Assembly: GCA_964386935.1 (NCBI GenBank)
Contig: CAYLUX010000001.1
Span: forward strand, 23,386 to 87,385
Direction: 5' to 3'
DNA from: an uncultured Janibacter sp.
Lineage (GTDB): Bacteria > Actinomycetota > Actinomycetes > Actinomycetales > Dermatophilaceae
Length of the DNA stretch: 64,000 nt
In this document: positions 16,405 through 39,044 of the stretch, in pieces
How positions within the stretch are numbered: position 1 is the stretch's first letter
Layout of the letters: each line of letters opens with the position of its first letter
Translations under genes and position numbers: made by a program
Notes under the pieces: generated by a model
Database searches by the model: none
What the model saw: only the letters and a program-made list of their open reading frames with translations
What the model was told of the DNA's origin: nothing

Positions 16405-17808
16405 CTACTCGGCCCGGTCCCTGGTGCGGGAGGCCAGCGCCGCCAGTGCCGAGGGAAAGATCTCCGCGGGAGGGGTGACGAGCCCCGCGCCCACCTGACC
16501 GACCCCCGCGACCCGCCCCGCCATGCCGGTGTTGATCTGCGGCAGGATGCCGGTGCGGCAGACCTTCGAGACGTCGATGCCGGTGGGGGCGCCGAGGAAG
16601 TCGAGGACCGGGATCGCCCAGCGATTGTTCTCGGCCAGCGTGATCTCGCCCATCCGACGAGTGGTGGCCAGGGCGTCCGGGACCGAGCCGCCGACGAATC
16701 GGACGATGGCCGGCGCGGTGGCCATCGAGAAGCCACCGATCCCCGTGGTCTCCGTGATCGCCGAGTCGCCGATGTCGGGATTGGCGTCCTCCGGACCGTA
16801 GTCGCCGAGGAAGAGACCGTCGGCGACCTGGGCCGGCCCCGTGAACCACTCGTCGCCGGTACCGGCGACCTGGATGCCGAACTCGGTGCCGTTGCGTGCC
16901 ATCGCCACGACCATGGTCGAGCCGTCGATGCCGCGGGCGGCGTCCATCTGGAGCTTGCACGCCGGCATGGCCACGTTGAGGAAGAAGTGGTCGTTCCCGC
17001 CGATGAAGGCGAAGACGTCCGCGACGTCGCCCGGGTCCGCACTGCTTCGGACGAGGGCGGGGGCCAGGTCGCGGAGCAGCATGAGGGTGCCCGCGCGGTT
17101 GCGGTTGTGGGCCTCGTCGCCCATCTGCAGCATCTGACCCAGGATCGCCGTCGCGTCGATGGGCCCGGTCGCCCGGACGGCCTCGGCGAGGACGGGGCCG
17201 AGGGTGTCGGCCATCCAGCGCAGTCGGGTGAGCACCTCCGAGGAGTAGGCCCCGTAGCGCAGGACCTTCCCGAGGCCCTCGTTGAGGGAGCAGTAGGTGC
17301 GCCGCCCGTCCTCGGGGTCCTCGAGCACCCACATCCACATGGAGGGGGAGACGACCCCGGCCATCGGACCGACCGAGCGACGGTGGTGGCAGGGCTCGAA
17401 GCTGAGGCTCCCGTCGGCGAAGAGGGCGGCGGCATCCTCCGGGTCCTCCACGAGCCCCTCGAAGGCGGCGGCACCCATCAGGGCGCCCTGCATCGGGCCC
17501 GATGCCTTGTCCCAGGTCAGCGGCGGCCCGGCGTGCAGGAACTGCCCGCGCTCCAGGCCCAGCACCTCGCGGGCAGGGGCCACGTCGACGACCATCGCCT
17601 GGACGCCGAGGACCGCCTCGACCGCACGCCGGTTCGCCTCGGCGCGAAGGGGGTCGGTCGCGACCGTGGTGAGGTCGGCCTCGGTCCCCGTCATCGGGGG
17701 GCGCCAGTCGACCCGGCTCACGGGGACGGCCTGGTCGGCCAGGGCGTCGGCGAAGATGCTGGCACCGGCCGACACCACTCCGGCCGTGGGGTTGCTGTTC
17801 GTCGTCAT
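16405..17808 (-). CDS. DUF1116 protein, YlbE/AllG-like subunit of an FdrA-type carbamoyltransferase
   Basis: 'LHAGPP', 'FEPCHHRRSVGPMAGV', 'CSLNEGLGKVLRYGAY' and 'GDSAITETTGIGGF' match my recollection of E. coli YlbE along the whole length. Confidence 0.85.
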   Translation of the reverse strand: MTTNSNPTAGVVSAGASIFADALADQAVPVSRVDWRPPMTGTEADLTTVATDPLRAEANRRAVEAVLGVQAMVVDVAPAREVLGLERGQFLHAGPPLTWDKASGPMQGALMGAAAFEGLVEDPEDAAALFADGSLSFEPCHHRRSVGPMAGVVSPSMWMWVLEDPEDGRRTYCSLNEGLGKVLRYGAYSSEVLTRLRWMADTLGPVLAEAVRATGPIDATAILGQMLQMGDEAHNRNRAGTLMLLRDLAPALVRSSADPGDVADVFAFIGGNDHFFLNVAMPACKLQMDAARGIDGSTMVVAMARNGTEFGIQVAGTGDEWFTGPAQVADGLFLGDYGPEDANPDIGDSAITETTGIGGFSMATAPAIVRFVGGSVPDALATTRRMGEITLAENNRWAIPVLDFLGAPTGIDVSKVCRTGILPQINTGMAGRVAGVGQVGAGLVTPPAEIFPSALAALASRTRDRAE

Positions 17809-19307
17809 GCTGCGGCTCCAATCAGGGAGAGCGCCCGGTCGACTGCCTGGGCATTGGACAGGTAGACCTCGGCTCCGGCCTCGGCCAGCGCCCTCGCCTG
17901 CTCGTCGAGCACCTGCGGGTCCTCGGCGGTGCCGATGCAGCTCACGAGGACGGTGAGATCCCGGCCCTCGGCACGGGCTGCCGCGATGGCGTCGCGGATC
18001 GCGGGGGCCGTGCTGGCGGCGGGGTCGGCGTCGGCACCGTGGCCGAGCACGACGTCCATGAGCACGACCGCCGCGTCCGGGTCCGCGCCGGTGGCGGCGA
18101 GGTGTTCGAGTCGGATCGTGGGGTCGATCATCGGGTGGGCCCGCCCGGCGGTCATCGAGTCGTCACCGAAGTCGATCATCACCGTGCCGTCGGCCGTGAG
18201 CGTCGGGCCGAGCGTGTACCGGGAGTCCAACGGGATGTTGCTGTACACCGGGCCGACGCGGTCCGTGGCCATGATCATGGCCTCGTCGCACAGCGTCCCG
18301 CCCGCGAAGAGGCCCCGCAGCCGCCCGGCGGTCGCCGTCGTGCCGGCAGCACCCCACGTGGGCCAGGTGGGCACCGGACGGTCGAGGGCGGTCAGGACGG
18401 TGGCAGCCGCCTCGGTGAGGTCGGGCCGTCCCGGTCCGAGGAGTGCGAAGTGGACCGGTGTGTCCAGCGTGTCCGCGAACCGGCGCAACTCGGCCTCGAC
18501 CTGCTCCGCCGGCGGCTTGGAGACCACGACGATCAGCTCGGTCCCCGGGTCGGCGTCGAGCCGGCGCATCGCCTGCATGGTCGCCAGACCACCGACCTCG
18601 GGGCCCAGGTCGCGACCGCCGACACCGAGCGCGGCGCTCATGCCGACGCCGGCGTGGTCGAGCAGGCACATCAGCTGCTGGCAACCCGTGCCGGAGGCCG
18701 CGACCAGGCCGACAGGCCCGGGACGCACCGCATTGGCGAAGCCGAGGCCCACTCCGTCCACCATCGCGGTTCCGCAGTCCGGACCCATGACGAGCAGGTC
18801 ACGGGCGGTGGCGATCCGTTTCAGTGCGACCTCCTGGTCGAGGGGCACGTTGTCGCTGAAGATCATCACGTCGTGGCCGGCGTCGAGGGCATCCATCGCC
18901 TCGACGACGGCACTCGCCCCGGGGACCGAGACGAGGGCCAGCGCCGAGTCCGAGCGCCGCAGGGCACTCGTGACGGTGCGTGCCGGCTCCTCCGCGCTGC
19001 CGGAGGACTCCGATCGCCTCGTCACGGCGGCCAGAGCCGCGTCGACAGCCGCCAGCGCCTCCTCCAGGGAGGACCGGTCCTCGAGCCGGATGGCCACGAC
19101 CATGTCGTTGGGGGTGGTCTCGGGCAGCTCGAAGCCCATCGAGGCGATGACGTCGAGGTTCAACGGCGTCGCCATCGCGACCTGTGCTGCTCGGACGCCC
19201 CGGACACCGGCCACGTCCTTGCTGACCTGCAGGAGTGCGACGGAGTCCGCGTAGGCGCCGGGGCGCCGTTCCACGTGGACGTGGCCGGCGTCGGTGGTGG
19301 AGGTCAT
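17805..19307 (-). CDS. fdrA: FdrA-like protein (succinyl-CoA-ligase alpha fold)
   Basis: ATG 19307 (the track ORF is extended to 19601 by R-rich junk). Contains 'LVSVPGASAVVEAMDALDAGHDVMIFSDNVP', 'LVMGPDCGTA', 'VGLVAASGTG'. It overlaps both neighbours by 4 nt. Confidence 0.85.
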   Translation of the reverse strand: MTSTTDAGHVHVERRPGAYADSVALLQVSKDVAGVRGVRAAQVAMATPLNLDVIASMGFELPETTPNDMVVAIRLEDRSSLEEALAAVDAALAAVTRRSESSGSAEEPARTVTSALRRSDSALALVSVPGASAVVEAMDALDAGHDVMIFSDNVPLDQEVALKRIATARDLLVMGPDCGTAMVDGVGLGFANAVRPGPVGLVAASGTGCQQLMCLLDHAGVGMSAALGVGGRDLGPEVGGLATMQAMRRLDADPGTELIVVVSKPPAEQVEAELRRFADTLDTPVHFALLGPGRPDLTEAAATVLTALDRPVPTWPTWGAAGTTATAGRLRGLFAGGTLCDEAMIMATDRVGPVYSNIPLDSRYTLGPTLTADGTVMIDFGDDSMTAGRAHPMIDPTIRLEHLAATGADPDAAVVLMDVVLGHGADADPAASTAPAIRDAIAAARAEGRDLTVLVSCIGTAEDPQVLDEQARALAEAGAEVYLSNAQAVDRALSLIGAAA

Positions 19308-20119
19308 GGGCAGGTGCTCCTTGATCTGAGGTGGTCCAGGGCGAGCGAGAGTCCCAGCACCAGACCGTGGCCGGACGTGTGACCGATGTGGGTCAGGTCG
19401 GCCACCGCGGCGGGGACCTCGTCGGGCCGGGCGGTGAGGGCGTCCAGCAGGTGTGCGAACTGGGGCACGGTCTCCCCGTGCAGTGCTCGACGCAGCAGCG
19501 TCGCCGAGAGGGAGGTGGTGCGTGTCCCGGCGGCGGCGAGCACCCTCCGGCCGAAGGGGGCCGCGCACGGGTGTCGTGCGGCGACGACGGTGGCGAGCCA
19601 ACCGCTCAGGACGTCGTCACCGAGCGGCGTGAGTCCGCTGCCGAGGCCGAGCAGGGCATCGACCGCGCGCACGTCCGCGTCCGCGAGGTCCTGCAGTGCC
19701 GCGGTGGGCAGCTCGGTCCGGATCTCGCTGCCCGCCGCCGGAGCCGACTCGAGGCGGAAGAGCATCCGGGGGGCCTCCTCGGGGTCGATCACCGTCGCGA
19801 CGCGACTGCTGATGCGTCCCACGCGGACCCGTGCCCCGGTGAAGTGGAGCGCTCCGCCGTCGATCGTGACGGTGCTGCCGGGGGCAGGAGGGCGTCCGTC
19901 GAGGGCGAGCCGGCCGGTGTCGGTCAGGGTCGTGTGCAGCCCGCACGGCACCAGGACCGCTCGTCGCGACAGCACGGCGACGACCTCCTTGCCGAGGTCG
20001 AGGTAGACCGCGTCCGGCCCGGAGTGGAGCACGGGCACCTGCGTGGGCCCCTCGGCGAGGAGCTCCCGGATCCACCGGGGACCGGCGGCGGAGACGTCGG
20101 TGCGGACCGCCGTGGTCAC
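19304..20119 (-). CDS. DUF2877 protein, YlbF/AllH-like
   Basis: GTG start, 271 aa. Contains 'LLGLGSGLTPLGDDVLSGWL' and 'IGHTSGHG'. First gene of a ylbF-fdrA-ylbE-type operon. Confidence 0.75.
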   Translation of the reverse strand: MTTAVRTDVSAAGPRWIRELLAEGPTQVPVLHSGPDAVYLDLGKEVVAVLSRRAVLVPCGLHTTLTDTGRLALDGRPPAPGSTVTIDGGALHFTGARVRVGRISSRVATVIDPEEAPRMLFRLESAPAAGSEIRTELPTAALQDLADADVRAVDALLGLGSGLTPLGDDVLSGWLATVVAARHPCAAPFGRRVLAAAGTRTTSLSATLLRRALHGETVPQFAHLLDALTARPDEVPAAVADLTHIGHTSGHGLVLGLSLALDHLRSRSTCP

Positions 20120-20218
20120 GACATCGTTCCCGTGGTCATATGTGGACCGTAGCGGCTGCTGTTAGCCTTGTTTAAGGCAAGAAATGACAATCATTCCCCG
20201 CAGAATTGACAGACTTTC
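20120..20218. promoter_or_regulatory. divergent control region between the DUF2877-fdrA-DUF1116 operon and pucR
   Basis: 99-bp stretch, clearly AT-richer than its surroundings. Palindrome GCCTT-GTTT-AAGGC (20165-20178) and a TGATT-N8-TTGCC element on the minus strand (20193-20176). Confidence 0.5.
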
Positions 20219-21874
20219 ATGAACCATGGGTACCGGGTCCCCCTTCGTGACGTCCTGGAGGTCGATGCCCTCGCGGACACGTCGGTGCTGGCGGGCCGTT
20301 CCGGTCTGGACCGGGTCGTGACGCGGCTGAACGTCATGGAGGTGCCCGACATCGTCGACTGGGTGGGCCCGCACGCCCTTCTGGTCACGGCCGGGTTCCC
20401 GCTCGTCGGGCTCGACGAGGAACGGTTCATCGACCTGATCCGGGGCCTCGACGAGCGAGAGGTCACGGCGCTGGGGATCAAGGTCGGCCGATATCTCGAC
20501 GAGATCCCCCCGAGCGTCCTCGAGGTCGCGGACGAGCTCGGGTTCCCCCTGCTGGCGCTCTCGGCGGATCTCGCCTTCGAGGACCTCCTCGAGGAGGTCC
20601 ACGTGCGTCTCACGGAGGTCCAGCAGGGAGTCCTGGAGCGCACGGATGCCCTGCACGCGGCGCTGGAGGGCCTGGTCCTCGAGGGGGCCGGTCTCGAGGA
20701 GATCGCTACCCGGATCGCCGAGGTGCTGGGGATCGGTGTCCTCGTGACGACGGTGGACGGACGTGAGCTGGCGGGGGCCCTGGCCGATGACATGCGCGAG
20801 ATCCTCGCGGGGGAGGACCTGTCCGACCCCACCGGTCGGATCCGGGTGGAGCGACTGCGGGTGCGACCGATGAGGGTCGGGGGCGGGCAGGTGCTGGTCC
20901 AGCCGGTGGTCGCCGCGAACAGCGACCTGGCGCGTCTCGTCGCCTTCGACCCGCACCGGGTGATCCCCAAGGACGACGTGTACGCCCTGCAGCGGGCGTC
21001 GGCGGTGGCCGCCCTCCTCATCTCCCAGCAGCAGGCCGTCAGCGCCGTGGAGTCGAAGTACCGGGGTGACTTCCTCCGGGACGTCCTCAGCGACCGGGCC
21101 GGCGACGAGGGCCGGGTGAGGGACTACGCGGCCGGGCTGGGGTGGAGCATCGATCTGCCGGTGATGGTGGTGACGGCGCGGCTCGACCCACCGGACAAGG
21201 GCTCGTCACCGGAGGGCAACCCGAGGGAGTGGCGCGAGCGCTTCTTCCAGGCGTGGAAGAAGGTCGTGGCCTCCCGCGGCCCCGAGCACCCCACGGCCGA
21301 CTTCTTCGACGAGGTCGTCAGCATCCTCTCCGCGCCGGAGCACCTGCGCGACCAGCCCAAGGCGGCGACGGAGCACCTCCAGGGGCAGGTCGCCGACATC
21401 GTCAGCGAGGTGGCGGGGGACCGGGGCGGGAGCCGGCGGCCCTTCTCCGTCGGTACCAGTCGGCTGGTGCGAGTCTGGGACGGGTTGCCCGCCGCCTACC
21501 GGCAGGCGCGGCGGGCCAACGAGGTCGGCTACCGGTTCACGGGAGGCAGCGGCACCTCGCACTTCGACGACCTGGGCATCCACCGCCTCATCGGGCTGAT
21601 CCCCGACCGGGGGGAGATGGAGGCCTTCGCCGAGGACGTCCTGGGCGAGCTGGCCGGTGAGGGGCCCGAGGTGGAGGGGCTGCGCGACACCCTGCAGGTG
21701 CTTCTCGACGCCAATCTCAACGTGGCGGAGGCCTCCCGGATCCAGTACGTCCACTACAACACGATGCGTTACCGGATCACGAAGCTCGAGCAGCTGCTCG
21801 GGTCCTTCACGACGGATCCCGCCCTGCGTCTGAACCTCGCGGTGGCGCTCCAGGTGCGCAGGATCCAGCTCTGA
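20219..21874 (+). CDS. PucR-family transcriptional regulator
   Basis: 551 aa. N-terminal PucR-type domain ('LRDVLEVDALADTSVLAGRSGLDRVVTRLNVMEVPD') and C-terminal HTH ('AEASRIQYVHYNTMRYRITKLEQLLG'). Confidence 0.85.
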   Translation: MNHGYRVPLRDVLEVDALADTSVLAGRSGLDRVVTRLNVMEVPDIVDWVGPHALLVTAGFPLVGLDEERFIDLIRGLDEREVTALGIKVGRYLDEIPPSVLEVADELGFPLLALSADLAFEDLLEEVHVRLTEVQQGVLERTDALHAALEGLVLEGAGLEEIATRIAEVLGIGVLVTTVDGRELAGALADDMREILAGEDLSDPTGRIRVERLRVRPMRVGGGQVLVQPVVAANSDLARLVAFDPHRVIPKDDVYALQRASAVAALLISQQQAVSAVESKYRGDFLRDVLSDRAGDEGRVRDYAAGLGWSIDLPVMVVTARLDPPDKGSSPEGNPREWRERFFQAWKKVVASRGPEHPTADFFDEVVSILSAPEHLRDQPKAATEHLQGQVADIVSEVAGDRGGSRRPFSVGTSRLVRVWDGLPAAYRQARRANEVGYRFTGGSGTSHFDDLGIHRLIGLIPDRGEMEAFAEDVLGELAGEGPEVEGLRDTLQVLLDANLNVAEASRIQYVHYNTMRYRITKLEQLLGSFTTDPALRLNLAVALQVRRIQL

Positions 21875-21946: not shown

Positions 21947-22002
21947 CTGGCAGCACTTGCCAGTGAGGCTGGTGTGACGTGAGACATAGGCTCGTGTCTC
22001 AC
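21947..22002 (+). promoter_or_regulatory. two inverted repeats upstream of the nucleobase permease
   Basis: CTGGCA-GCACT-TGCCAG (21947-21963) and GTGAGACA-N8-TGTCTCAC (21979-22002), just upstream of the AGGAG RBS. They may be operators or leader hairpins. Confidence 0.4.
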
Positions 22003-22023
22003 CTCGGCACCTAGGAGCTTTCA

Positions 22024-23412
22024 ATGGCGAACATGTTCAGGTGGACAGAAGTACATGGGGGAAAGACGCCGCCTCCGGGCGAGTCGGTGGGTCCTCATGA
22101 ACGAATGAGCTGGGGGCGCACGATCGGGATCGGCGCCCAGCACGTGGTCGCGATGTTCGGCGCCACGTTCGTCTTCCCCGTCATCATGGGCCTGGATCCC
22201 AACCTGGCGATCCTCTTCTCCGGGTTGATGACGATCCTCTTCCTCATCATCGTCAAGAACTGGGTGCCCAGCTACCTGGGCACGAGCGCCGCCTTCGTCG
22301 CCGTCGTGATCGCCATCCGCTCCCAGGGCGGGGACTCCTCGGACGTCACCGGAGCGATCCTGGCCGCGGGTGCCGTCCTTGCCCTGGTCGGTGTCGGCGT
22401 CCACTTCGCCGGTCCTCGGCTCCTGAAGAAGGTGCTCCCCCCGGCCGTGACCGGCGGGGTGGTCATGCTCATCGGCTTCAACCTCGCGCCGGTCGTGGCG
22501 GACACGTACTGGCCCCAGGACCAGTGGATCGCGATCCTGACGACGCTCTTCCTCGTCGTCGGCGCCGTGCTCTTCCCCGGCTTCTGGGCGCGGATCGCGG
22601 TGTTCCTGGGTCTCCTGTTCGGCTTCCTCCTCTCGTGGCTCGCCGACGTCACCCTGGGGCCGATCACGTCGGTGACACCGACCAGCAACGGCGAGGCCGT
22701 CCCCCACGACCGGGTGAGCTTCGCCGGGATCGGCGACGCCTCGTGGTTCGGTCTCCCCAGCGGCGATCTCGCCGACGGTGTCGCCGCCGTCCACGGGCCG
22801 AGCTTCTCGCTGACCTTCATCCTGCTGGCGCTCCCCGGTGTCATCGCCCTCATCGCCGAGAACACCGGCCACGTGCGGGCCATCGCGGAGATGACTGGTG
22901 ACGACCTCGATCCCTACATGGGCCGGGCCCTCGGGGCCGACGGTCTGGCCACGGTCCTCGCCAGCTCGGTCGGAGCCTCACCCACGACGACCTATGCAGA
23001 AAACATCGGCGTCATGTCGGCCACCCGCATCTACTCGACGGCGGCCTACTACGTGGCGGCCATCGTGGCGATCATCCTGGGGCTGGTGCCGAAGTTCGGC
23101 GTCATCATCAACGCCATCCCCGGGGGCGTCCTCGGCGGGATCACCGTCGTGCTCTACGGGATGATCGGCCTGATCGGCGCCAAGATCTGGGTGGACAACC
23201 ACGTCGACTTCGGCAGTCCGAAGAACATCGTCCCGCTGGCCGCCGGCCTCATCGTCGGGATCGGTGACGTGACGTTGGAGATCACGGACGACTTCCAGCT
23301 GGGTGGCATCGCCTTCGGCACGATCCTCCTGCTCGTGCTCTACCACCTCGTCAACCGTAGTGACACTCCCACCAACGAGCCCAGTGACGAAACGGATCTG
23401 ACCTACACGTGA
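22024..23412 (+). CDS. NCS2-family nucleobase:cation symporter, uracil/pyrimidine (UraA/RutG) branch
   Basis: AGGAG (22013-22017) lies 6 nt before the ATG. Contains 'GAQHVVAMFGATFVFPVIMGLDPN' and the NCS2 signature 'TTYAENIGVMSATRIYS' (ENxGxxxxTR, as in UraA rather than the QN form of xanthine permeases). Confidence 0.85.
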   Translation: MANMFRWTEVHGGKTPPPGESVGPHERMSWGRTIGIGAQHVVAMFGATFVFPVIMGLDPNLAILFSGLMTILFLIIVKNWVPSYLGTSAAFVAVVIAIRSQGGDSSDVTGAILAAGAVLALVGVGVHFAGPRLLKKVLPPAVTGGVVMLIGFNLAPVVADTYWPQDQWIAILTTLFLVVGAVLFPGFWARIAVFLGLLFGFLLSWLADVTLGPITSVTPTSNGEAVPHDRVSFAGIGDASWFGLPSGDLADGVAAVHGPSFSLTFILLALPGVIALIAENTGHVRAIAEMTGDDLDPYMGRALGADGLATVLASSVGASPTTTYAENIGVMSATRIYSTAAYYVAAIVAIILGLVPKFGVIINAIPGGVLGGITVVLYGMIGLIGAKIWVDNHVDFGSPKNIVPLAAGLIVGIGDVTLEITDDFQLGGIAFGTILLLVLYHLVNRSDTPTNEPSDETDLTYT

Positions 23413-24296
23413 AACCCGCTCCCTTCCGCTACGAACGTCCGACGAACCTGGCCGGGGCCCTGGCCGTCCGGGCCTCGGAGCCCGAGGCGAAGGTCCTCGC
23501 AGGTGGGCAGAGCCTGATCCCCCTGATGTCGATGCGGCTCAGCACCGTCCCGGTGCTCATCGACATCAACGGGCTCGAAGAGCTCTCCCGCATCACGGTG
23601 GACCAGTCCGGGGTCCGGTTCGGCGCCATCGTGCGGCACAGCGAGCTGCTGGCGCACGAGGAGGCGAGGAAGGTCCAGCCCCTCCTCGCGGCCGCCCTCG
23701 AGCACGTCGCCCACGCGACCATCCGCAACCGGGGGACGAGCGTCGGCTCGATCGCGCATGCCGACGCCTCCGGGGAGATGCCGATGATCCTCTGCCTCAC
23801 CGGCGGCAGCCTGACCGTCGCGTCGACGCGGGGCCGGCGGGAGATCCCGGCCCAAGACCTGTTCGTCGGGGCCATGGAGACCAGCCTCGAGCCGGACGAG
23901 ATCGCGATCGAGGCTTTCGCGCCGGCGCTCGCGGCACGCAGCGGGATCGCCTACGACGAGGTCGCCCGTCGACACGGTGACTACGCCCTCTGCGGTGTGG
24001 GCGCCGTGGTCACCCACGACGAGGAGGGCCGGATCGAGCACGCCCGGGCGGGGTTCGTGTCGGTCTCGGAGGTTCCCGAGGTCGTCGACCTCACCGAGTG
24101 CTTCCCGCGGGGAGAGCTGAGCGAAGGGAGCCTGGCGGATGCCGGCGACCACGCCCTGAGCCGGCTCGACCCGGAGTCCGACATCCACGCCACGGCCGAC
24201 TACCGGGCGCAGCTCGCGCGCACGCTCACCGTCAGGGTGCTGCGCGCCGCCGACGAGGACGCCCGCGCCCGGACGATCCGGAAGGAGAGGGTCTGA
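23409..24296 (+). CDS. molybdenum hydroxylase FAD-binding medium subunit (CoxM/CutM type)
   Basis: GTGA overlap with the permease stop. Contains 'VLAGGQSLIPLMSMRL' and 'IRNRGTSVGSIAHADA'. Confidence 0.85.
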   Translation: MKPAPFRYERPTNLAGALAVRASEPEAKVLAGGQSLIPLMSMRLSTVPVLIDINGLEELSRITVDQSGVRFGAIVRHSELLAHEEARKVQPLLAAALEHVAHATIRNRGTSVGSIAHADASGEMPMILCLTGGSLTVASTRGRREIPAQDLFVGAMETSLEPDEIAIEAFAPALAARSGIAYDEVARRHGDYALCGVGAVVTHDEEGRIEHARAGFVSVSEVPEVVDLTECFPRGELSEGSLADAGDHALSRLDPESDIHATADYRAQLARTLTVRVLRAADEDARARTIRKERV

Positions 24297-24298
24297 CC

Positions 24299-24805
24299 AT
24301 GGAGGATCCCGCTGCAGAGGAGACCGTGTCGATCCAGTTGCGGGTCAACGGCATCACCCACACCATCGAGGCGCCGCCACGACGACTGCTGAGCGACGCC
24401 CTCCGCCACGACCTCGGCCTCACCGGCACGCACGTGGGGTGCGAGCACGGGGTCTGCGGGGCCTGCACCATCCTCGTCGACGGTTCTCCCATGCGCTCCT
24501 GCCTGATGTTCGCCGTCAGTGCCGCGCACCACGAGCTGACCACGGTGGAGGGGCTGGCGTGCAGGGACGGGCGGCTGAGCCCGACGCAGCAGGCCTTCAA
24601 GGAGTGCCACGGGCTGCAGTGCGGCTTCTGCACGCCCGGGTTCCTCACGACCATCAGCGCCGGGATCAGGGACAACCCGGACCCGGACCGCCAGGAGGCG
24701 CAGGACATGATCGCCGGCAACCTCTGCCGGTGTACCGGGTACCAGAACATCGTCGCATCGGTCCTGCGGGCGGCTGAGATCCAGCGGGAGGAGGACAGGC
24801 GATGA
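24299..24805 (+). CDS. molybdenum hydroxylase [2Fe-2S] small subunit (CoxS/CutS type)
   Basis: ATG 24299. Cluster motifs 'GCEHGVCGACTILVDG' and 'QCGFCTPGF ... CRCTGY'. Confidence 0.9.
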   Translation: MEDPAAEETVSIQLRVNGITHTIEAPPRRLLSDALRHDLGLTGTHVGCEHGVCGACTILVDGSPMRSCLMFAVSAAHHELTTVEGLACRDGRLSPTQQAFKECHGLQCGFCTPGFLTTISAGIRDNPDPDRQEAQDMIAGNLCRCTGYQNIVASVLRAAEIQREEDRR

Positions 24806-33424: not shown

Positions 33425-34224
33425 TGGTGGTTGCCGACATCGCCGTGCTCAGTGGCCGGGGGAAGACCGGGGGCGCGGTGGTGTCGGCGCTGCGTCGGCG
33501 CGGCGTCGCTGCCCGGCCGCTGGGGCGAGCCGAGCTGGTCGATCTCCCGGAGGCCCTGAGGGGGTGCACGGGTCTCTACCTCATGGCGCCCAACATGAGC
33601 GAGGACGAGCCCTCCTTCGTCGACTCGGCCCTGCGGGCGGCCGGCAGAGCCGGCATCCGCAGGGTGGTCTACCACTCCGTGGCCGCTCCGTACGCGCCAC
33701 TGATGCCCCACCACCTGGGCAAGGCGGAGGCCGAGGACCTCGTGCGCCGCAGTGGCCTCGACTGGACGATCCTGCAGCCCTGCGCCTACGTCCAGAACCT
33801 CCTCCCCGGTCTGCGGGCGGACCCTCCGGGCATCGACGTCGTCTACGACCCCGATCGCAGGTTCGGACTCGTCGACGTCGAGGACGTGGGTGAGGCGGCA
33901 GCGATCACGCTCCTCCGGTCCGAGGACGTCGGGGCGACCTACGAGCTCGGTGGGCCCGAGCTGGTCAGCGTGCGTGAGGTGGCCGGTGTCGCCGAGGAGG
34001 TGATCGGCCGGCGCGTGCCGGTGCGTCGGATCCCGGTGGCCGAGTGGTCGGCCGGCGCCGGCCGCGGTCTCGAGCCGAGGGTGCGTGACTGGCTCCTGGC
34101 GATGTTCGCCTACTACGACCGGTACGGCCTGCCGGCCGGGTCCGGGTCGCTCGTCGGCCTGCTGGGCCGTCCGCCGAGGGGACTGACGCCGATCCTGCGT
34201 CGAGAGCTCGGCGCATTGTCATGA
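33424..34224 (+). CDS. NmrA-like / atypical SDR NAD(P)-binding protein
   Basis: TGATG junction with hyuB. 266 aa. 'GRGKTGGAVVSAL' is a degenerate Rossmann start. Also 'GLDWTILQP'. Confidence 0.65.
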   Translation: MVVADIAVLSGRGKTGGAVVSALRRRGVAARPLGRAELVDLPEALRGCTGLYLMAPNMSEDEPSFVDSALRAAGRAGIRRVVYHSVAAPYAPLMPHHLGKAEAEDLVRRSGLDWTILQPCAYVQNLLPGLRADPPGIDVVYDPDRRFGLVDVEDVGEAAAITLLRSEDVGATYELGGPELVSVREVAGVAEEVIGRRVPVRRIPVAEWSAGAGRGLEPRVRDWLLAMFAYYDRYGLPAGSGSLVGLLGRPPRGLTPILRRELGALS

Positions 34225-34242
34225 CGTGCCCAGAACGTTTTC

Positions 34243-34262
34243 TGATTCAGCAGCTATTGCCA
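34243..34262 (+). promoter_or_regulatory. shared island motif, copy B (upstream of arcC)
   Basis: TGATTCAGCAGCTATTGCCA, preceded by the palindrome CAGAA-CGTT-TTCTG (34231-34244). Confidence 0.45.
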
Positions 34263-34299
34263 GTGTGGGCCGGTGGTGTCGGCTCGTAACGTGCATCAC

Positions 34300-35238
34300 A
34301 TGCGCTTCGTGATCGCCTTGGGCGGCAACGCCATGACGTCCCCGGACGGGAGTGCACGTCCGGAGGACCAGCGGGATGCCATCCGGCGGGCGGCGGGCCC
34401 CGTCGTCGATCTCGTCGCTGCGGGACACGAGGTGCTGATCACCCACGGCAACGGTCCCCAGGTCGGGAACCTGCTCGTGAAGAACGAGCTCACGGCCGGA
34501 CGCGTGCCACCCGTGCCGCTGGACTGGTGCGGTGCCCAGACGCAGGCGACGATCGGCATGCTGATCATCAATGCCCTGGACGAGCAGTTCGCGGCGAGGG
34601 GCATCGACCGGAAGTCCGCAGCGCTCGTCTCGCGGACGCTGGTCGACCCGGCGGACGCACACTTCGTCGACCCGACGAAGCCGATCGGTCGGTACCTGAC
34701 CCGTGCCGAGGCCCAGCCCCTCATCGACCAGGGGCAGCAGTTCGTCGAGGTGCCCGAGCGTGGCTGGCGTCGTGTCGTGGCCTCACCGGCACCCGTCGAG
34801 TGCCTCGACGGCCCCGCCGCCGACGTGCTGATGAGGTCCGGTTACGTGGTCGTGTGCTCCGGGGGCGGGGGGATCCCCACGTTCCGCGGCACCGACGGGG
34901 CCAACGTCGGTGCGGAGGCGGTCATCGACAAGGACCTCACCGCGGCGCTCATCGCGCAGCAGGTGCGAGCGGACCACCTCGTCATCGCCACCGACGTAGA
35001 CGCGGTCGTGGCCGGCTGGGGCAGTGACTCCGAGCGGCCCGTCGGCGAGATCGACGCGACCGAGATGCGAGAGCTCTGCGCCGAGCAGGGATTCGCGGCC
35101 GGGTCGATGGGACCCAAGGTCGAGGCCGTCACGACGTTCGCCGAGTCCGGTACCGGGACCGGCATCATCACCTCCCTCGAGCGCATCACCGAGGCCATCG
35201 AGGGGCGGGTCGGCACGCGGGTCGTGCCGACCCGCTAG
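34300..35238 (+). CDS. arcC: carbamate kinase
   Basis: ATG 34300 gives '[12 protein letters not shown]'. Also '[10 protein letters not shown]', 'CSGGGGIP', '[10 protein letters not shown]'. Confidence 0.9.
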
Positions 35239-35278
35239 CTCGCCCGATCCATCACCACCACCACGGAAGGACGCGCCA

Positions 35279-36391
35279 GTGCCGTCAGCAATCGAAGTCC
35301 GCAAGGTCCCGATCCACTCCGTCGCCGACGCCAGCGAGTTGGCCAAGCTCATCGACGACGGCACCCTGGAGGCCGATCGGGTCATCGCCATCATCGGGAA
35401 GACCGAGGGCAACGGCGGGGTCAACGACTACACCCGCATCATCGCCGACCGGGCATTCCGGGAGGTGATCCAGGAGAAGGGAACCCGGTCCGCCGACGAG
35501 GTGCACCAGATCCCGATCGTGTGGTCCGGGGGGACCGACGGCGTCATCAGCCCGCACGCGACCATCTTCGCCACGCTGCCCCCGGAGAAGGCGGCGCCGA
35601 GCGACGAGCTGCGCCTCAGCGTCGGCTTCGCCATGAGCGACCAGCTGCTCCCGGAGGAGATCGGGCGGACCCCGATGATCGAGAAGGTCGCCGAAGGCGT
35701 CACCCGCGCGATGGCGGAGGCGGGCATCACCGACCCCGCCGACGTGCACTACGTCCAGACCAAGACACCCCTGCTGACGATCGACACCATCAGGGACGCC
35801 AAGAGCCGCGGGAAGACGGTGTGGACCGACGACACCCTCAAGTCGATGGACCTGTCCAACGGCACCACTGCACTCGGGATCGCCGTCGCCCTCGGGGAGA
35901 TCGAGATGCCGACCGACGAGGACGTCCTGGAGAACCGGGACCTGTACTCCTCGGTCGCGTCCTGCTCCTCCGGAGTGGAGCTGGACCGGGCCCAGATCGT
36001 CGTCGTGGGCAATGCCCGGGGGGTCGGCGGCAACTACCGCATCGGCCACTCGGTCATGAAGGACGCCCTGGACGCCGAGGGCATCTGGGACGCGATCAAG
36101 GACGCGGGGCTCGACCTGCCGGAGCGCGCCCGCAGCACCGACCTGGACGATCGCCTCGTCAACGTCTTCCTCAAGTGCGAGACCAGCCAGGACGGCCACG
36201 TGCGGGGGCGGCGCAATGCGATGCTCGATGACTCCGACGTCCACTGGCACCGGCAGATCAAGGCCGCCGTTGGCGGCGTGACAGCGTCCGTCACCGGTGA
36301 TCCCGCCGTCTTCGTCTCGGTCTCGGCCGCGCACCAGGGCCCGGACGGGGGAGGCCCCGTCGCGGCGATCGTCGACATGGGGCGGGCGTGA
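35279..36391 (+). CDS. ring-opening amidohydrolase of the barbiturase / cyanuric acid hydrolase (AtzD/TrzD) family
   Basis: GGAAGG then GTG 35279. '[16 protein letters not shown]', '[12 protein letters not shown]', 'LPEEIGR', '[14 protein letters not shown]', '[27 protein letters not shown]' and '[14 protein letters not shown]' track my recollection of the AtzD sequence end to end. Confidence 0.9.
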
Positions 36392-37593
36392 CCGAGGCCG
36401 GCTCCGCGCCGGACCCGGCGGGCGACGGGCCACTGTCCGGGACCATCGTCCTGGACATGACCCGGGCGCTCGCCGGGCCCCACGCGGCCATGATGCTCGG
36501 GGACCTCGGCGCCCGCGTGATCAAGATCGAGAGCCCCGCTGGAGACGACAGCCGTGGCTGGGGTCCACCGTTCCTCGGCGAGGGTGAGCAGCGCGAGTCG
36601 ACCTACTTCATGTCGGCCAACCGCAACAAGGAGTCGATCACCCTCGATCTGAAGATCGCCGAGGACCAACAGGTGATGACCGCACTGGTGCGGCAGGCGG
36701 ACGTCCTCATGGAGAACTTCCGGGTCGGTGTCCTGGACCGGCTCGGGTTCGACGTCGAGCGGCTGCACGAGCTCAACCCGCGCCTGGTCATCCTCTCGAT
36801 CACCGGCTTCGGGCACGACGGGCCGGAGGCGGAGAGGGCGGGGTACGACCAGATCGCCCAGGGCGAGGCCGGGCTGATGAGCCTGACCGGGATCGAGGAG
36901 CCGACCAAGGTCGGGGTGCCGATCGCGGACCTGCTCGCCGGGATGAACGGCGCCTACGGCACGGTGGCGGCCCTCTACGAGCGGGAGCGCACCGGTCGCG
37001 GACGCGTCGTCCGCACCTCGCTCATCGCCGGCATCGTCGGGATCCATGCCTTCCAGGGCACCCGGTGGACCGTGGGGGGAGAGGTCCCGGGGCTCTCCGG
37101 CTCGCACCACCCGTCGATCGCGCCGTACGGCCTCTTCCACACGGCGACCTCGCCCATCCAGCTCTCCTGCGGTTCGGAGACCCTGTGGAAGCGGTTCGCC
37201 CCCGCACTCGGGATCGCGGTCGACGACCCACGGTTCGCCACCAACGGCGACCGGGTCACCCACAAGGAGGAGCTCATCGACATCCTCGAGGGGGTGTTCG
37301 CCGAGGAGCCCGCCGACCACTGGCTGGAGCTCCTCACCGCGGCGGGGATCCCGTCCGGGCGGGTCCGGACCATCGACGAGGTCTACGAGTGGGACCAGGC
37401 CATCTCCCAGGGCCTGAGGATCGAGGTCGACCACGCCACCCAGGGGCGTCTCGCGCTGCCGGGACCGGCCGTGCGGCTCGACGACAACGACTACGCGGGC
37501 GCCCGCCGCCACCACGAGGCGCCTCCGACCCTGGGCCAGCACAACGACTCCGTCCGCCGGTGGCTGGCGGAGGTCGACGCAACCGTGCACTAG
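36388..37593 (+). CDS. family III CoA-transferase (CaiB/BaiF/Frc type)
   Basis: GTGA overlap with the upstream gene. Contains '[31 protein letters not shown]', '[17 protein letters not shown]', 'PIADLLAG'. Confidence 0.85.
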
Positions 37594-37610
37594 GCGAGGC
37601 CGCCCCTGGC

Positions 37611-39044
37611 TCAGGCGCTTCGCAGCTCCCGCAGCCGGACGCCGATCGAGGCCGCGACGGCCTCGGCGAAGACCTCCGGGGAGTCCTCCTCGGACTCCGC
37701 GACGAGGTGGGTGACGATGCCGTCCTCGAGCAGCTCGAAGGCCGAGACGCGTTGCTGCTCCACCATCTGCGGCGCGTGGGTCGCGTCACCGAACATGATG
37801 ACGCTCGCCCCCTCGGGCGGCAGTGGCGAGAGCCAGGCGTTCTCGGCGGCGATGGTGCGGTCCGCCGGCAGCAGCGCGAGCGCACCGCCACCGCACCCCT
37901 GACCGAGCAGGACCGAGACACTGGGGACCGTGAGCGAGGTCATCCCCGCGATGCACCGGGCGATCTCGCCGGCCATGGCACCTTCCTCGGCCTCCGGCGA
38001 CAGCTCGGCGCCGGGGGTGTCGATGACCGAGACGAGGGGCAGGCGCAGCTGGTTGGCCAGGTGCATGCCCCGCCTGGCCTCCCGCAGGGCGGCCGGACCC
38101 ATCGGGGTGCCGGGGGACTGCCGGCTCCGGTCCTGGCCGATGAGGACGCACGGCACCCCGTCGATCCGGGCGATCGCGATCATGACCGTCCGGTCGTTCT
38201 CGCCCTCGTCCGTCCCCTGCAGCCGGATGATGGCGTCGCTGCCGTGGCGGAGGAGGTCCCGCACGCCTACGCGATGCTCCTCGCGGGTGATCTCGATCGA
38301 CTCCCACGAGGACCTGCGGCGCTCCTCGGGTCCGGGCCGCTCCGACCGGGTGGTGGCAGTGGGCGGGTCGAGGAGGAGCCCGAGGGTGCGGTCCAGCACC
38401 TCCGCCAGCTCCGTGGTGGTCACGACGCCGTCGATGATCCCCCGTCGCACGAGGTTGTCGCTGACCTGGACTCCCGGAGGGAAGGGGCGCCCCTCGAGGG
38501 CCTCGTAGACCTTCGGCCCGAGGAAGGCGACCATCGCCCCGGGCTCGGCGACGGTGATGTGGCCCAACGACCCCCACGAGGCAAGGACGCCGCCCGTCGT
38601 CGGGTGCCGGAGGTGCACGAGGTAGGGCAGGCCGGCCTCCTGGTGGGCGACGATGGCCCGGGAGATCCGGGCCATGTGCACGAAGGCGGGAGTCCCCTCC
38701 TGCATCCGGGTTCCGCCGGAGCAGGTCGAGGCCACGAGAGGGAGACCTTCGGCGGTGGCCCGGCTCACCGCCCGTGTGATCCGGTCAGCGGCAGCGGATC
38801 CGATCGAGCCGGCCAGGAAGGCGAACTCGTTGACGATCACCGCCACGGGACGCCCGTGCACGAGGCCGCGGCCGGTGATCACGGACTCGTCCGTGCCGGC
38901 GCGCTCGGCGGCGCGGCGCAGCGAGTCCCGGTACTCCTCGGGGTGTCCGCTGATGTCGATCGGCTCGTCCCAGGGCTCGAAGGACCCGTCGTCGAGCACG
39001 GTCTCGATGAGCTCGTGGGCGGAGAGCCGTGGCAGGGATGACAT
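37611..39044 (-). CDS. fused carboxyltransferase (AccD-like N-half + AccA-like C-half, no Zn-ribbon)
   Basis: N-half has 'DDGSFEPWDEP', 'VAVIVNEFAFLAGSIGSAAADRITRA', 'SGGTRMQEG'. C-half has 'PLVSVIDTPGA' and 'VLLGQGCGGGALAL'. Confidence 0.85.
   Translation of the reverse strand: MSSLPRLSAHELIETVLDDGSFEPWDEPIDISGHPEEYRDSLRRAAERAGTDESVITGRGLVHGRPVAVIVNEFAFLAGSIGSAAADRITRAVSRATAEGLPLVASTCSGGTRMQEGTPAFVHMARISRAIVAHQEAGLPYLVHLRHPTTGGVLASWGSLGHITVAEPGAMVAFLGPKVYEALEGRPFPPGVQVSDNLVRRGIIDGVVTTTELAEVLDRTLGLLLDPPTATTRSERPGPEERRRSSWESIEITREEHRVGVRDLLRHGSDAIIRLQGTDEGENDRTVMIAIARIDGVPCVLIGQDRSRQSPGTPMGPAALREARRGMHLANQLRLPLVSVIDTPGAELSPEAEEGAMAGEIARCIAGMTSLTVPSVSVLLGQGCGGGALALLPADRTIAAENAWLSPLPPEGASVIMFGDATHAPQMVEQQRVSAFELLEDGIVTHLVAESEEDSPEVFAEAVAASIGVRLRELRSA

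Follow-up and report, generated by a model that had tools for sequence, protein, structure and literature searches.

A conserved actinobacterial gene cluster predicted to degrade pyrimidines through barbiturate, possibly with phosphorolytic recovery of ATP

A 23-kb gene block from an uncultured Janibacter sp. was found to be a conserved actinobacterial cluster and not a one-off juxtaposition of genes. On balance, the block is best explained as a uracil/thymine cluster that operates via barbiturate in a phosphorolytic, ATP-recovering variant. A pyrimidine pathway through barbiturate is very probable; for phosphorolysis of ureidomalonate, the case for and the case against are evenly balanced. 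Thymine is probably a substrate in addition to uracil. The set of genes suggests a pathway variant not described before, in which the ureido group would be split by phosphate, ATP would be recovered and no urea would be released. The barbiturase assignment apart, the substrates proposed below rest on context.

Gene content, borders and conservation

The window is the whole 64,000-nt stretch that was analysed (GCA_964386935.1, contig CAYLUX010000001.1, positions 23,386-87,385). The block spans 16405-39044 of the window, with 17 ORFs, and the ORF list and profiles recovered all 17 genes of the original prediction in place and in the families named there. The predicted overlaps of 1-4 nt at 17805, 19304, 23409, 24802, 27222, 31484, 33424 and 36388 agreed with the ORF coordinates; a base-by-base inspection of the 19304 junction placed the FdrA start at 19307, with an ATGA shared with the AllH stop codon. 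CoxM and CoxS, however, do not overlap but lie 2 nt apart, and ArcC and Bar lie 40 nt apart. On the left, the block is flanked by carD, ispD, a flavoprotein gene and ispF, the last as predicted, but on the right approximately 3.5 kb of other genes (a GATase-like gene, Zn-ADH and an MBL-fold gene) separate it from cysS (42608-44068). The earlier term "accessory island" is apt insofar as the block is inserted into a conserved carD-ispD-ispF-cysS block, but the cluster is widespread and conserved rather than strain-specific. The GC content was level, and the borders of the block showed neither a tRNA or integrase gene nor flanking direct repeats. The ORF scan covered the window up to its last ~3 kb, with the exception of several small ORFs; among the ORFs scanned there were no purine-catabolic genes and, as predicted, no urease, urea carboxylase or allophanate hydrolase.

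To compare gene neighborhoods, 80 genomes anchored on barbiturase and 80 metagenome loci anchored on CoxL were surveyed, and co-occurrence was counted within windows of ~20 kb rather than genome-wide. The gene set and its order recurred in well over 100 independent loci, and ArcC-Bar, HyuAB, CoAT-CT, CoxMSL-CoxG-amidase and AllHFG-PucR-permease co-occurred, in this or a rearranged order, across many actinobacterial families. The carbamate kinase gene directly preceded bar in 69 of the 76 informative species-level loci, again in many actinobacterial families; in L088, L119, L131, L137 and L138, metagenome loci of greater divergence, ArcC did not adjoin bar. The CoxL-anchored loci revealed a recurrent order, AllG-FdrA-AllH and PucR-permease-CoxMSL-CoxG-amidase-HyuAB-...-Bar, with AllHFG divergent from PucR. 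Of the 21 metagenome loci that extend 7.5 kb or more upstream of CoxL, 16 contained AllFGH and 5 lacked it upstream of the Cox genes. AllHFG and bar are contiguous in Nocardioides sp. R1-1 and N. donggukensis, and in Nocardioides sp. CPCC 206349 they share a contig at a distance of ~20 kb; the stretch from FdrA to Bar takes up less than 18 kb in L131, L137 and L138. In Janibacter alittae and Saccharomonospora marina, AllHFG is located beside PucR-permease-CoxMSL, as in the window. The R1-1 cluster adjoins a pyrimidine-nucleoside phosphorylase, a cytidine deaminase and a nucleoside ABC transporter. No published description of the cluster was found in the literature, in line with the earlier remark that no described locus unites these functions.

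Uptake, hydroxylation and ring opening

The NCS2 nucleobase:cation symporter (22024-23412, plus strand; PF00860) scored 351 bits against RutG, 249 against UraA and 151 against PbuX, all under the equivalog cut-offs. It looks like a member of the uracil/RutG branch, pyrimidine-like and not purine-like, and would import the base. Downstream on the same strand are a CoxM-type FAD subunit (23409-24296; PF00941, PF03450), a CoxS-type 2x[2Fe-2S] subunit (24299-24805; PF00111, PF01799; start verified in the sequence), a CoxL-type molybdopterin subunit (24802-27225; PF01315, PF02738, PF20256) and the SRPBCC accessory protein CoxG (27222-27860; PF06240), which followed CoxL in 36 of the 38 informative metagenome loci. 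The CoxL sequence fell far below the cut-off of every XDH model, and its nearest solved relatives were quinoline 2-oxidoreductase (452 bits) and 6-hydroxypseudooxynicotine dehydrogenase of the nicotine pathway. The enzyme shares the L/M/S subunit architecture and the form-II-type PYRGAGR loop with the CoxL/Qor/Kdh-type N-heterocycle Mo-hydroxylases, which are also its best solved matches, but the match is only 434-452 bits and the substrate here would be uracil or thymine. CoxL is a candidate for the large subunit of uracil/thymine dehydrogenase; from its family, its context and the classical pathway, the enzyme, together with CoxG, would hydroxylate C6 to yield barbiturate. The NCBIfam family name would make CoxL an aerobic CO dehydrogenase, which is contradicted by the PYRGAGR motif found in place of the CO-dehydrogenase signature.

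Purine catabolic loci typically contain PucR regulators, NCS2 permeases and XDH-family enzymes. The block could accordingly be read as a purine locus, in which a xanthine/urate permease and the Mo enzyme feed purines to oxalurate and then to AllFGH/ArcC, with Bar, the CoA-transferase and the carboxyltransferase as passengers; AllFGHK does close the E. coli allantoin pathway (PMC11326118). However, both proteins that the original prediction had left open to purine specificity point elsewhere by sequence, as the permease favors RutG/UraA over PbuX and CoxL, which stays far below all XDH cut-offs, most resembles N-heterocycle hydroxylases. Uricase, HIU hydrolase, allantoinase and allantoicase were not found among the window ORFs scanned, and the R1-1 cluster is flanked by pyrimidine nucleoside genes. 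In many families, moreover, Bar, ArcC, HyuAB and CoAT/CT keep synteny with the Cox genes and are thus not passengers. We regard the purine reading as very improbable.

The bar product (35279-36391, plus strand; AtzD/Bar family, PF09663, 497 bits) aligned without gaps to the Rhodococcus erythropolis barbiturase structure 5HWE at 666 bits, compared with at most 332 bits for any cyanuric acid hydrolase, and Rhodococcus barbiturase genes were 82-83% identical to it. All five barbiturase signature/specificity residues defined in PMC3758960 (N194, H324, K328, V348 and S349) were present. When set against both enzyme groups, as the original prediction had proposed, the protein thus sides with barbiturase, and its assignment as the enzyme that would open barbiturate to ureidomalonate is strongly supported. 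An s-triazine pathway would instead make this protein a cyanuric acid hydrolase and the amidase AtzE-like, with AllFGH/ArcC clearing biuret- or allophanate-type products. The AtzD/TrzD pathway does share the Toblerone-fold ring-opening amidohydrolase family and an AS amidase with the window; Bar reaches 489 bits with the NCBIfam equivalog model for cyanuric acid amidohydrolase, above the cut-off of 360, and the amidase matches the AtzE model at 266 bits, under the cut-off. Against this stand a barbiturase score twice that of any cyanuric acid hydrolase and five specificity positions that are all of the Bar type, the AtzD type being R/T/R/G/G. AtzF, AtzG, AtzH and BiuH were not found among the window ORFs scanned, and the malonate-type modules would be left without a role. 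This makes an s-triazine function barely credible. The oxidative pyrimidine route originally proposed (uptake, hydroxylation, barbiturase and amidase) is supported by the identity of Bar, the RutG/UraA-type permease, the N-heterocycle-type CoxL and synteny.

Fate of ureidomalonate and malonate

Three minus-strand genes encode AllG (formerly DUF1116/YlbE; 16405-17808; PF06545, 324 bits), the CoA-ligase fold subunit AllF/FdrA (17805-19307; NF004760 FdrA, 407 bits; PF00549) and AllH (formerly DUF2877/YlbF; 19304-20119; PF11392, 83 bits) homologues. The DUF2877-FdrA-DUF1116 set corresponds to AllHFG, whose description as an oxamate carbamoyltransferase dates from 2024, and E. coli AllFGH was shown experimentally to interconvert oxalurate plus Pi and oxamate plus carbamoyl phosphate (PMC11326118). 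The window proteins were 48% (AllG, 409 aa), 37% (FdrA) and 34% (AllH, C-terminal 119 aa only) identical to those of E. coli, a range (34-48%) at which substrate specificity is unreadable from sequence, and the known AllFGH range is oxalurate/oxamate only. AllG homologues in the same cluster context were 77-90% identical. Ureidomalonate is oxalurate lengthened by one CH2 group. We propose that AllH-AllF-AllG would phosphorolyze the acyl-urea bond of ureidomalonate to carbamoyl phosphate and malonamate, a new step that would take the place of the hydrolytic, urea-releasing ureidomalonase. With AllHFG identified, the loose idea in the original prediction that the ureido group might yield carbamoyl phosphate and ATP becomes a concrete step. 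The catabolic-type carbamate kinase gene arcC (34273 or 34300 to 35238, plus strand; TIGR00746, 327 bits; NF009007, 283 bits, above the cut-off of 266) probably starts at 34300, and its product is 39% identical to E. coli AllK. This family converts carbamoyl phosphate and ADP to ATP, NH3 and CO2, which would be its role here; the kinase would have a substrate only with a step that forms carbamoyl phosphate, for which AllHFG is the sole candidate in the cluster.

The amidase-signature (AS) amidase (27873-29288, plus strand; PF01425, 361 bits) scored 464 bits against NF005686, with a cut-off of 465. It reached 96 bits against malonamidase E2, compared with approximately 190-200 bits against GatA, NylA and AtzE, and so is no closer to the former. 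Its orthologues after CoxG in related loci were 64-76% identical, and a CN_hydrolase occupied its position in 10 loci. By sequence the amidase is generic and could be a ureidomalonase; the identity of AllHFG makes it more likely a malonamate hydrolase, which would release malonate and NH3, a step that a nitrilase-superfamily amidase would perform in other genomes.

A ureidomalonase role for this amidase would follow classical hydrolysis, with urea and malonate as products and with AllHFG/ArcC serving oxalurate or another purine/allantoin acyl-urea, co-located through a shared PucR-type nitrogen-scavenging regulon. Classical hydrolysis is the sole route shown biochemically (PMC3758960), E. coli AllFGH acts on oxalurate (PMC11326118), and the amidase family gives no substrate from sequence; AllFGHK is also found beside biuret/triuret genes in nitrifiers (PMC12625717), so the module accompanies more than one kind of ureide pathway. 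However, genes that could make oxalurate (allantoinase, allantoicase, ureidoglycolate dehydrogenase and uricase) were found neither among the window ORFs scanned nor beside AllHFG in five sequenced genomes, and ArcC is attached to bar, not allHFG, in the 69 of 76 loci given above. Urease and allophanate hydrolase were likewise missing among the ORFs scanned. The window amidase is not orthologous to the Rhodococcus amidase that adjoins bar (34-40% identity), and many loci that retain AllFGH, HyuAB and Bar either lack it or have another gene in its place. We consider classical hydrolysis unlikely for this cluster, and phosphorolysis of ureidomalonate remains the reading adopted here.

The family III CoA-transferase (36388-37593, plus strand; PF02515, 382 bits) had SUGCT and YfdE as its closest named solved relatives, both of which act on dicarboxylates, and would convert malonate to malonyl-CoA. 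It was present in 43/65 bar loci, often paired as CoAT-CT; co-directional pairs adjoin bar in many loci, Rhodococcus included. The carboxyltransferase (37611-39044, minus strand; PF01039, PF03255) is a fusion of AccD and AccA halves that weakly matches the malonate decarboxylase beta subunit. It is proposed to be a biotin-independent malonyl-CoA or methylmalonyl-CoA decarboxylase, which would yield acetyl-CoA from malonyl-CoA. In L138, a class I CoA-transferase and an arylmalonate-decarboxylase-family protein follow bar in place of CoAT-III and CT. Such non-orthologous replacements at the same positions (the CN_hydrolase and the L138 pair) support steps of small-amide hydrolysis and malonate-type decarboxylation, and a module leading from malonate to acetyl-CoA is reasonably likely.

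The subunits of an ATP-dependent hydantoinase/oxoprolinase are encoded on the plus strand by hyuA (29337 or 29397 to 31487; PF05378, PF01968, PF19278; 696 aa in the gene call on an identical Logan contig) and hyuB (31484-33424; PF02538, 451 bits). The two-subunit domain set is that of the ATP-dependent lactamases (N-methylhydantoinase, caprolactamase and 5-oxoprolinase), but the window scores (519 vs 1000 and 171 vs 1000) were far under the equivalog cut-offs. The best solved relatives of HyuB were N-methylhydantoinase (214 bits) and caprolactamase, and with 73-89% identity in relatives HyuB ranks with the most strongly conserved of the encoded proteins. HyuAB is a core, highly conserved member, yet the proposed model does not need it. 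It might drive the opening, at the cost of ATP, of a barbiturate not taken by Bar, such as 5-methylbarbiturate from thymine, although this is quite doubtful; an ATP-consuming HyuAB step would cancel the ATP gain. No paper linking the HyuA/HyuB family to pyrimidine catabolism was found. The adjacent NmrA-like NAD(P)-binding protein gene (33424-34224, plus strand; PF05368, PF13460), likewise counted as a core member, was present in 24/65 loci and also adjoins hyuA in L131.

Regulatory sites and comparison with known systems

The PucR-family regulator gene (20219-21874, plus strand; PF07905, PF17853, PF13556) is divergent from allH, a position kept in related loci. Several transcription units, in the window as well as in relatives, share an upstream operator-like palindrome, TGGCA-N5-TGCCA. 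The allH-pucR intergenic region contains a variant with two mismatches, AGGCAAGAAATGACA (20175-20189), and the motif was found upstream of pucR in 18/29 related loci. The only perfect match within the window, TGGCAGCACTTGCCA (21948-21962), lies upstream of the permease gene, overlaps a -35-like TTGCCA and is the likely regulator site; this promoter architecture is kept in relatives. The string TTGCCAGTG was found only upstream of the permease gene and of arcC, and two matches were reached in 0/100 shuffles. Two operator-like sites, TGTCATGACGTGCCC and CAGCAGCTATTGCCA, are located upstream of arcC (34217-34262), where the palindrome occupied a fixed position at ~-56 in 47/71 related loci compared with 10.5% of random segments. 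Another site, TGTCAAGAGATGCCC (39081-39095), precedes the carboxyltransferase start by ~40 nt and is one of the 5 among 24 window motif matches that fall in ~620 nt of cluster intergenic DNA. The PucR-family regulator probably acts at such sites to control all units.

Comparison with the E. coli AllFGH and AllK system revealed that the three subunit families and a linked carbamate kinase are common to both, and the chemistry proposed here is likewise phosphorolysis of an N-acylurea to carbamoyl phosphate. In contrast, the gene order is F-G-H-K in E. coli and H-F-G in the window, the window kinase belongs to the bar operon rather than the allF operon, and the allantoin genes allE, allC and allD are not nearby. 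The substrate is oxalurate in E. coli and ureidomalonate in our proposal.

Rhodococcus is the genus in which urea and malonate were demonstrated as products (PMC3758960); the route of R. erythropolis JCM 3132, by the account of Soong et al. (2001/2002) as cited there, comprises uracil/thymine dehydrogenase, barbiturase and ureidomalonase. The barbiturases are orthologous with the same specificity residues, and Rhodococcus loci also contain a three-subunit Mo-hydroxylase, a RutG-type permease, a PucR regulator and a CoAT-CT pair. In contrast, ArcC and HyuAB are missing near bar in Rhodococcus, AllFGH is missing at the equivalent position, and a different AS amidase directly follows bar. The Rhodococcus gene content provides a natural control for the phosphorolytic route: with ArcC, AllHFG and HyuAB and no urea-handling genes among the ORFs scanned, the window is predicted to yield carbamoyl phosphate and malonamate rather than urea and malonate.

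Layout, conservation and regulation of the cluster

All 17 open reading frames (ORFs) predicted at 16405-39044 were found to be present, and Pfam and NCBIfam searches placed each of them in the family that had been proposed for it. The gene overlaps predicted at 17805, 19304, 23409, 24802, 27222, 31484, 33424 and 36388 were real, as evident from the ORF coordinates and sequence, and two junctions contained gaps instead: 2 nt between CoxM and CoxS, subunits of the three-subunit FAD/FeS/Mo hydroxylase CoxMSL, and 40 nt between the carbamate kinase ArcC and the AtzD-family barbiturase Bar. The bar gene starts with GTG at 35279 and is preceded by the ribosome-binding site GGAAGGA. The original prediction had read these genes as a barbiturate-route pyrimidine catabolic island with ureide and malonate modules; the family, synteny and specificity-residue evidence supported and sharpened this interpretation, and we hold with high confidence that this is a barbiturate-route pyrimidine catabolic cluster.

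The left flank of the cluster consists of carD, ispD, an FMO/ArsO-like flavoprotein gene and ispF, and the right flank consists of a GATase-like gene, a Zn-ADH gene and an MBL-fold hydrolase gene (39175-42091), which separate the cluster from cysS. The order carD-ispD-ispF-cysS is a usual actinobacterial gene run, and it is interrupted by the cluster lying between ispF and cysS. The GC content was flat across the region at approximately 0.71 (0.68-0.73 throughout), and no integrase, border tRNA, meaningful flanking direct repeats or deviant composition was found at the cluster borders. The same cluster was present in Janibacter alittae in a different chromosomal neighbourhood, and part of the region was found, with identical sequence, on a Logan contig from SRR21601279; among named organisms, Janibacter and Aeromicrobium had the proteins most closely related to those of the cluster. 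Homologues of the ADH and MBL-fold genes (72% and 63% identical) were also paired upstream of ArcC-Bar in one metagenome-assembled locus (L043 3880-5600; L-numbers denote comparison loci from other genomes and metagenomes); these two genes are probably an unrelated detoxification pair. Elsewhere in the window, a tRNA-Thr (TGT) at 55521-55594 (+) was called within ORF 55485-56654, as delimited from stop to stop; this ORF matched glycosyltransferase family 2 weakly, probably has its real start 3' of the tRNA and has no relation to the cluster.

With bar as the anchor, scanning a single genome for each species revealed more than 586 relatives, and the best 80 of these (79-86% identical) were analyzed. 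All 80 belonged to Actinomycetota, and the taxa among them were Nocardioidaceae, Intrasporangiaceae, Rhodococcus, Pseudonocardia, Streptosporangiaceae, Jatrophihabitans, Jiangellaceae, Cryptosporangium and Geodermatophilaceae. The bar loci were then searched by tblastn with the 17 window proteins. Carbamate kinase was directly upstream of bar in 69 of the 76 informative loci, HyuB of the ATP-dependent hydantoinase/oxoprolinase-type pair HyuAB lay no more than 10 kb upstream in 44 of 65, and the family III CoA-transferase (CoAT) was found in 43 of 65 bar loci, frequently as a co-directional pair with the fused AccD-AccA carboxyltransferase (CT). The window order CoxL-CoxG-amidase-HyuAB-(NmrA)-ArcC-Bar recurred across the bar loci. 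AdnAB-type helicases, PurH, an acyltransferase and AIM24 near bar appeared on inspection to be local Nocardioides chromosomal synteny, not pathway members.

Homologues of AllG (77-90% identical), from the AllH-AllF(FdrA)-AllG set formerly known as DUF2877-FdrA-DUF1116 (AllHFG), came from the same taxa as the Bar relatives. In all five AllG loci looked up, AllH-AllF-AllG was divergent from a PucR-type regulator, which was followed by permease-CoxM-CoxS-CoxL-CoxG(-amidase). The AllG loci of Nocardioides sp. R1-1 and N. donggukensis overlapped the bar loci, which makes the cluster one continuous stretch in these two genomes; in Nocardioides sp. CPCC 206349, the AllHFG part and the bar part were approximately 20 kb apart on one contig. 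In R1-1 (CP175556.1; L082 11426-18615), genes for a pyrimidine-nucleoside phosphorylase, a cytidine deaminase and a Bmp-type nucleoside ABC transporter were found beside allG; together they form a module upstream of the pathway that feeds in uracil or thymine, and it is absent from the window. The window gene order also recurred in 80 metagenome loci anchored on CoxL, with CoxG after CoxL in 36 of 38 informative loci. Among the 21 CoxL loci with at least 7.5 kb upstream, FdrA or AllG was found in 16, and AllFGH was missing upstream of the Cox genes in 5. Three loci (L131, L137 and L138) spanned everything from FdrA through Bar.

Among 71 loci, 47 carried a TGGCA-N5-TGCCA palindrome ahead of arcC at a constant distance (about -56), compared with 10.5% of random segments; the palindrome was also found upstream of pucR (62%), hyuA (42%), CoAT (37%) and the permease (31%). 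The sole perfect copy in the window lies upstream of the permease at 21948-21962, and variants with up to two mismatches were present in the allH|pucR and nmrA|arcC (two sites) intergenic regions and upstream of CT. At this tolerance, the window-wide count corresponded to chance (24 found versus 22.7 expected). What supports the motif is where its matches lie and that they are conserved from locus to locus; 5 of the 24 matches fell within approximately 620 nt of cluster intergenic DNA. In addition, the permease and arcC upstream regions were the only places where TTGCCAGTG occurred. The placement of the motif, the sharing of TTGCCAGTG and the aligned permease promoters from relatives argue for one regulon. 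The 11-mer TGATTCAGCAG, common to the hyuA and arcC upstream regions, was rejected, as it was not conserved in other genomes and not enriched at two mismatches. We also observed an inverted repeat with an 8-bp stem (GTGAGACA...TGTCTCAC) at approximately 21978-22003, between the operator/promoter and the permease start, which was not conserved in the four relatives inspected. A sigma-70 promoter and terminator scan and an Rfam search yielded nothing useful.

Barbiturase and the molybdenum hydroxylase

Bar gave a full-length match to the ring-opening amidohydrolase family (PF09663, 497 bits; TIGR02714, 596 bits). Its alignment with the solved Rhodococcus erythropolis barbiturase (5HWE) was gapless and scored 666 bits, compared with at most 332 bits for any cyanuric acid hydrolase. 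The two enzymes are told apart by Asn194, His324, Lys328, Val348 and Ser/Ala349 in Bar numbering (PMC3758960), and the window protein carries N194, H324, K328, V348 and S349 at all five positions. The reading of Bar as a cyanuric acid hydrolase was ruled out by the scores against solved structures and by the specificity residues, and the AtzD homologue is, as judged from these features, a barbiturase of group VI (PMC3758960). Bar also passes the NCBIfam "cyanuric acid amidohydrolase" equivalog NF052395 (489 bits against a cut-off of 360), and automatic annotation would therefore mislabel the barbiturase.

CoxMSL is present as a complete Mo/FAD/FeS set that is syntenic with bar. The active-site loop of form I aerobic CO dehydrogenase is AYRCSFR; the loop of CoxL is PYRGAGR, which is not the CO dehydrogenase signature. 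NF040766 names CoxL "aerobic carbon-monoxide dehydrogenase large subunit" (1472 bits), and the true CO dehydrogenase model TIGR02416 gave only 455 bits against a cut-off of 991. The loop and the missed equivalog cut-off ruled out a CO dehydrogenase. A xanthine dehydrogenase was ruled out by scores of 399-420 bits against the XdhA models, whose cut-offs are 780-916; the score against PucD was 291 bits (cut-off 784). The closest solved relatives of CoxL are quinoline 2-oxidoreductase and a nicotine-pathway hydroxylase, both of which hydroxylate N-heterocycles. Because of these relatives, the RutG/UraA-type permease and the synteny with bar, CoxMSL is the obvious candidate for the uracil/thymine dehydrogenase. 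Two automatic annotations are misleading in this cluster, namely the barbiturase as "cyanuric acid amidohydrolase" and CoxL as "CO dehydrogenase". In Saccharomonospora marina (L166 13236-21358), a second CoxG-CoxM-CoxL-CoxS set with XdhC and CoxE was found a few kb from the pyrimidine-type cluster; the two are paralogous Mo-hydroxylase systems lying next to each other.

Ureide cleavage, amide hydrolysis and the proposed pathway

The AllHFG proteins matched PF06545, the FdrA model and PF11392 together in one overlapping operon. Their identities to the E. coli set were 48% for AllG, 37% for FdrA and 34% for AllH, and ArcC was 39% identical to AllK. DUF1116 and DUF2877 are AllG and AllH, and E. 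coli AllFGH is an oxamate carbamoyltransferase that interconverts oxalurate plus Pi and oxamate plus carbamoyl phosphate, with the carbamate kinase AllK as its partner (PMC11326118). As in E. coli, where a catabolic carbamate kinase is linked to AllFGH, ArcC is encoded in the same cluster. Unlike in E. coli, the kinase gene has been relocated to the bar operon, and arcC is predicted to be co-transcribed with bar and not with allHFG; ArcC was not next to bar in several of the more divergent metagenome loci. Whereas the allantoin/oxalurate-forming genes allB/C/D/E adjoin the E. coli allFGH operon, no such genes were found in the window ORFs scanned or in five related loci.

The first function of the AllFGH family was established only in 2024, and ureidomalonate, the barbiturase product, is oxalurate with one additional CH2. 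By analogy, the simplest reading is that AllHFG would phosphorolyze ureidomalonate with Pi to carbamoyl phosphate and malonamate, that ArcC would then make ATP from the carbamoyl phosphate, and that the amidase would hydrolyze malonamate. For such a phosphorolytic, ATP-yielding ureide step, we consider the chances to be even. AllFGHK was also found beside biuret and triuret genes in nitrifiers and was read there as oxalurate cleavage (PMC12625717); this arrangement suggests that the AllFGH family may serve several acyl-ureas.

The AS amidase was considered as an orthologue of malonamidase E2, against which it scored only 96 bits; it is a generic AS amidase with a substrate not readable from its sequence, and the putative malonamate assignment is consequently drawn from context alone. 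In 10 metagenome loci, a CN_hydrolase (nitrilase superfamily) stood between CoxG and HyuA instead of the AS amidase, as in L158 (7361-8275) and L131 (8788-9711). After bar, L138 (19016-21797) contained a class I CoA-transferase (A and B) and an arylmalonate-decarboxylase/EutA-like protein, and the other loci instead contained CoAT and CT at this position. These replacements fit a pathway that hydrolyzes a small amide and then activates and decarboxylates a malonate-type acid. The nearest named solved relatives of CoAT, SUGCT and YfdE, both act on dicarboxylates, and CT, a fusion of AccD and AccA, lacks the N-terminal Zn-ribbon region that the AccD model includes.

In the proposed pathway, CoxMSL would convert uracil or thymine to the corresponding barbiturate type, Bar would open barbiturate to ureidomalonate, and the AllHFG, ArcC and amidase steps would precede activation and decarboxylation of a malonate-type acid. 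The functional claims beyond the barbiturase are inferred from sequence and context, and the balance tips slightly in favour of the model as a whole. HyuAB is superfluous to this pathway despite being among the best-conserved cluster proteins (73-89% identity). It tracks the ArcC/AllFGH-type clusters, is absent from the Rhodococcus type and has ATP-dependent lactam hydrolases (N-methylhydantoinase and caprolactamase) as relatives. ATP-driven ring opening of 5-methylbarbiturate in the thymine branch is our weak guess for its role, and we regard it as improbable. The NmrA-like protein has no role in the model and was left unassigned.

The FMO/ArsO-like flavin monooxygenase is encoded at 14777-15898 (-), between ispD and ispF and one gene from allG, and scored 295 bits against NF040505 (cut-off 425). 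A 55% identical orthologue was one gene from allG in S. marina (L166 12071-13189), and homologues with 59-69% identity were located 8-10 kb downstream of bar in nine Nocardioides loci. The flavoprotein was found near the cluster in three different arrangements and may belong to the system as well; the DNA upstream of its gene showed no operator-like site.

Relation to the classical oxidative pyrimidine pathway

The oxidative (barbiturate) pyrimidine route has been known biochemically since the 1950s, and to our knowledge, the barbiturase gene is the only one so far assigned in it. A full-text literature search revealed neither a description of the cluster nor a paper connecting barbiturase with carbamate kinase, AllFGH or HyuAB; papers outside this search may treat the gene context. 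The cluster provides testable gene candidates for uptake, the uracil/thymine dehydrogenase, ureide cleavage, amide hydrolysis and malonate disposal, and it points to a phosphorolytic, ATP-yielding variant without urea release that is built on the AllFGH family. We tentatively propose that many Actinomycetota may possess a urea-free, ATP-recovering oxidative pyrimidine pathway, in which an AllFGH-family ureidomalonate phosphorylase (malonamate carbamoyltransferase) and carbamate kinase would recover ATP from the pyrimidine C2-N3 unit, and a HyuAB lactamase would open a barbiturate that Bar cannot take, for instance the 5-methylbarbiturate formed from thymine. Such a pathway, if real, would extend the recently identified AllFGH family to a new substrate class, assign genes for the uracil/thymine dehydrogenase and, in Rhodococcus, for ureidomalonase, and represent the first pyrimidine-linked role for a HyuAB enzyme. 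The cluster is widespread, predicts a new activity for a newly characterized enzyme family and offers candidates for enzymes long without genes; as it is found in hundreds of soil actinobacterial species, it bears on soil nucleobase turnover and nitrogen recycling.

In Rhodococcus, urea and malonate were shown biochemically to be the products (PMC3758960). The Rhodococcus bar loci differ from the window in that they contain neither ArcC nor HyuAB, and AllFGH is not at an equivalent position. The Rhodococcus-type locus, exemplified by Rhodococcoides fascians (L028 7167-21104), has the order CoAT-CT-Bar-amidase-PucR-amidase-XdhC-PucR-permease-CoxM; AS amidases and PucR regulators are each encoded twice and an XdhC chaperone once, and ArcC, AllFGH and HyuAB are absent. 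The amidase gene directly after bar in this type of locus is a candidate for encoding the classical ureidomalonase. The window amidase is 34-40% identical to two Rhodococcus amidases and is placed after CoxG, not after bar. None of the scanned ORFs in the 64 kb window encoded a urease, a urea carboxylase or an allophanate hydrolase. The window cluster and the classical pathway would thus share a route via barbiturate and ureidomalonate, with a true barbiturase. The classical ending is missing from the window, because it holds no orthologue of the Rhodococcus bar-adjacent amidase and no urea-handling genes; in its place, the window contains a full AllFGH and carbamate kinase set outside the allantoin context.
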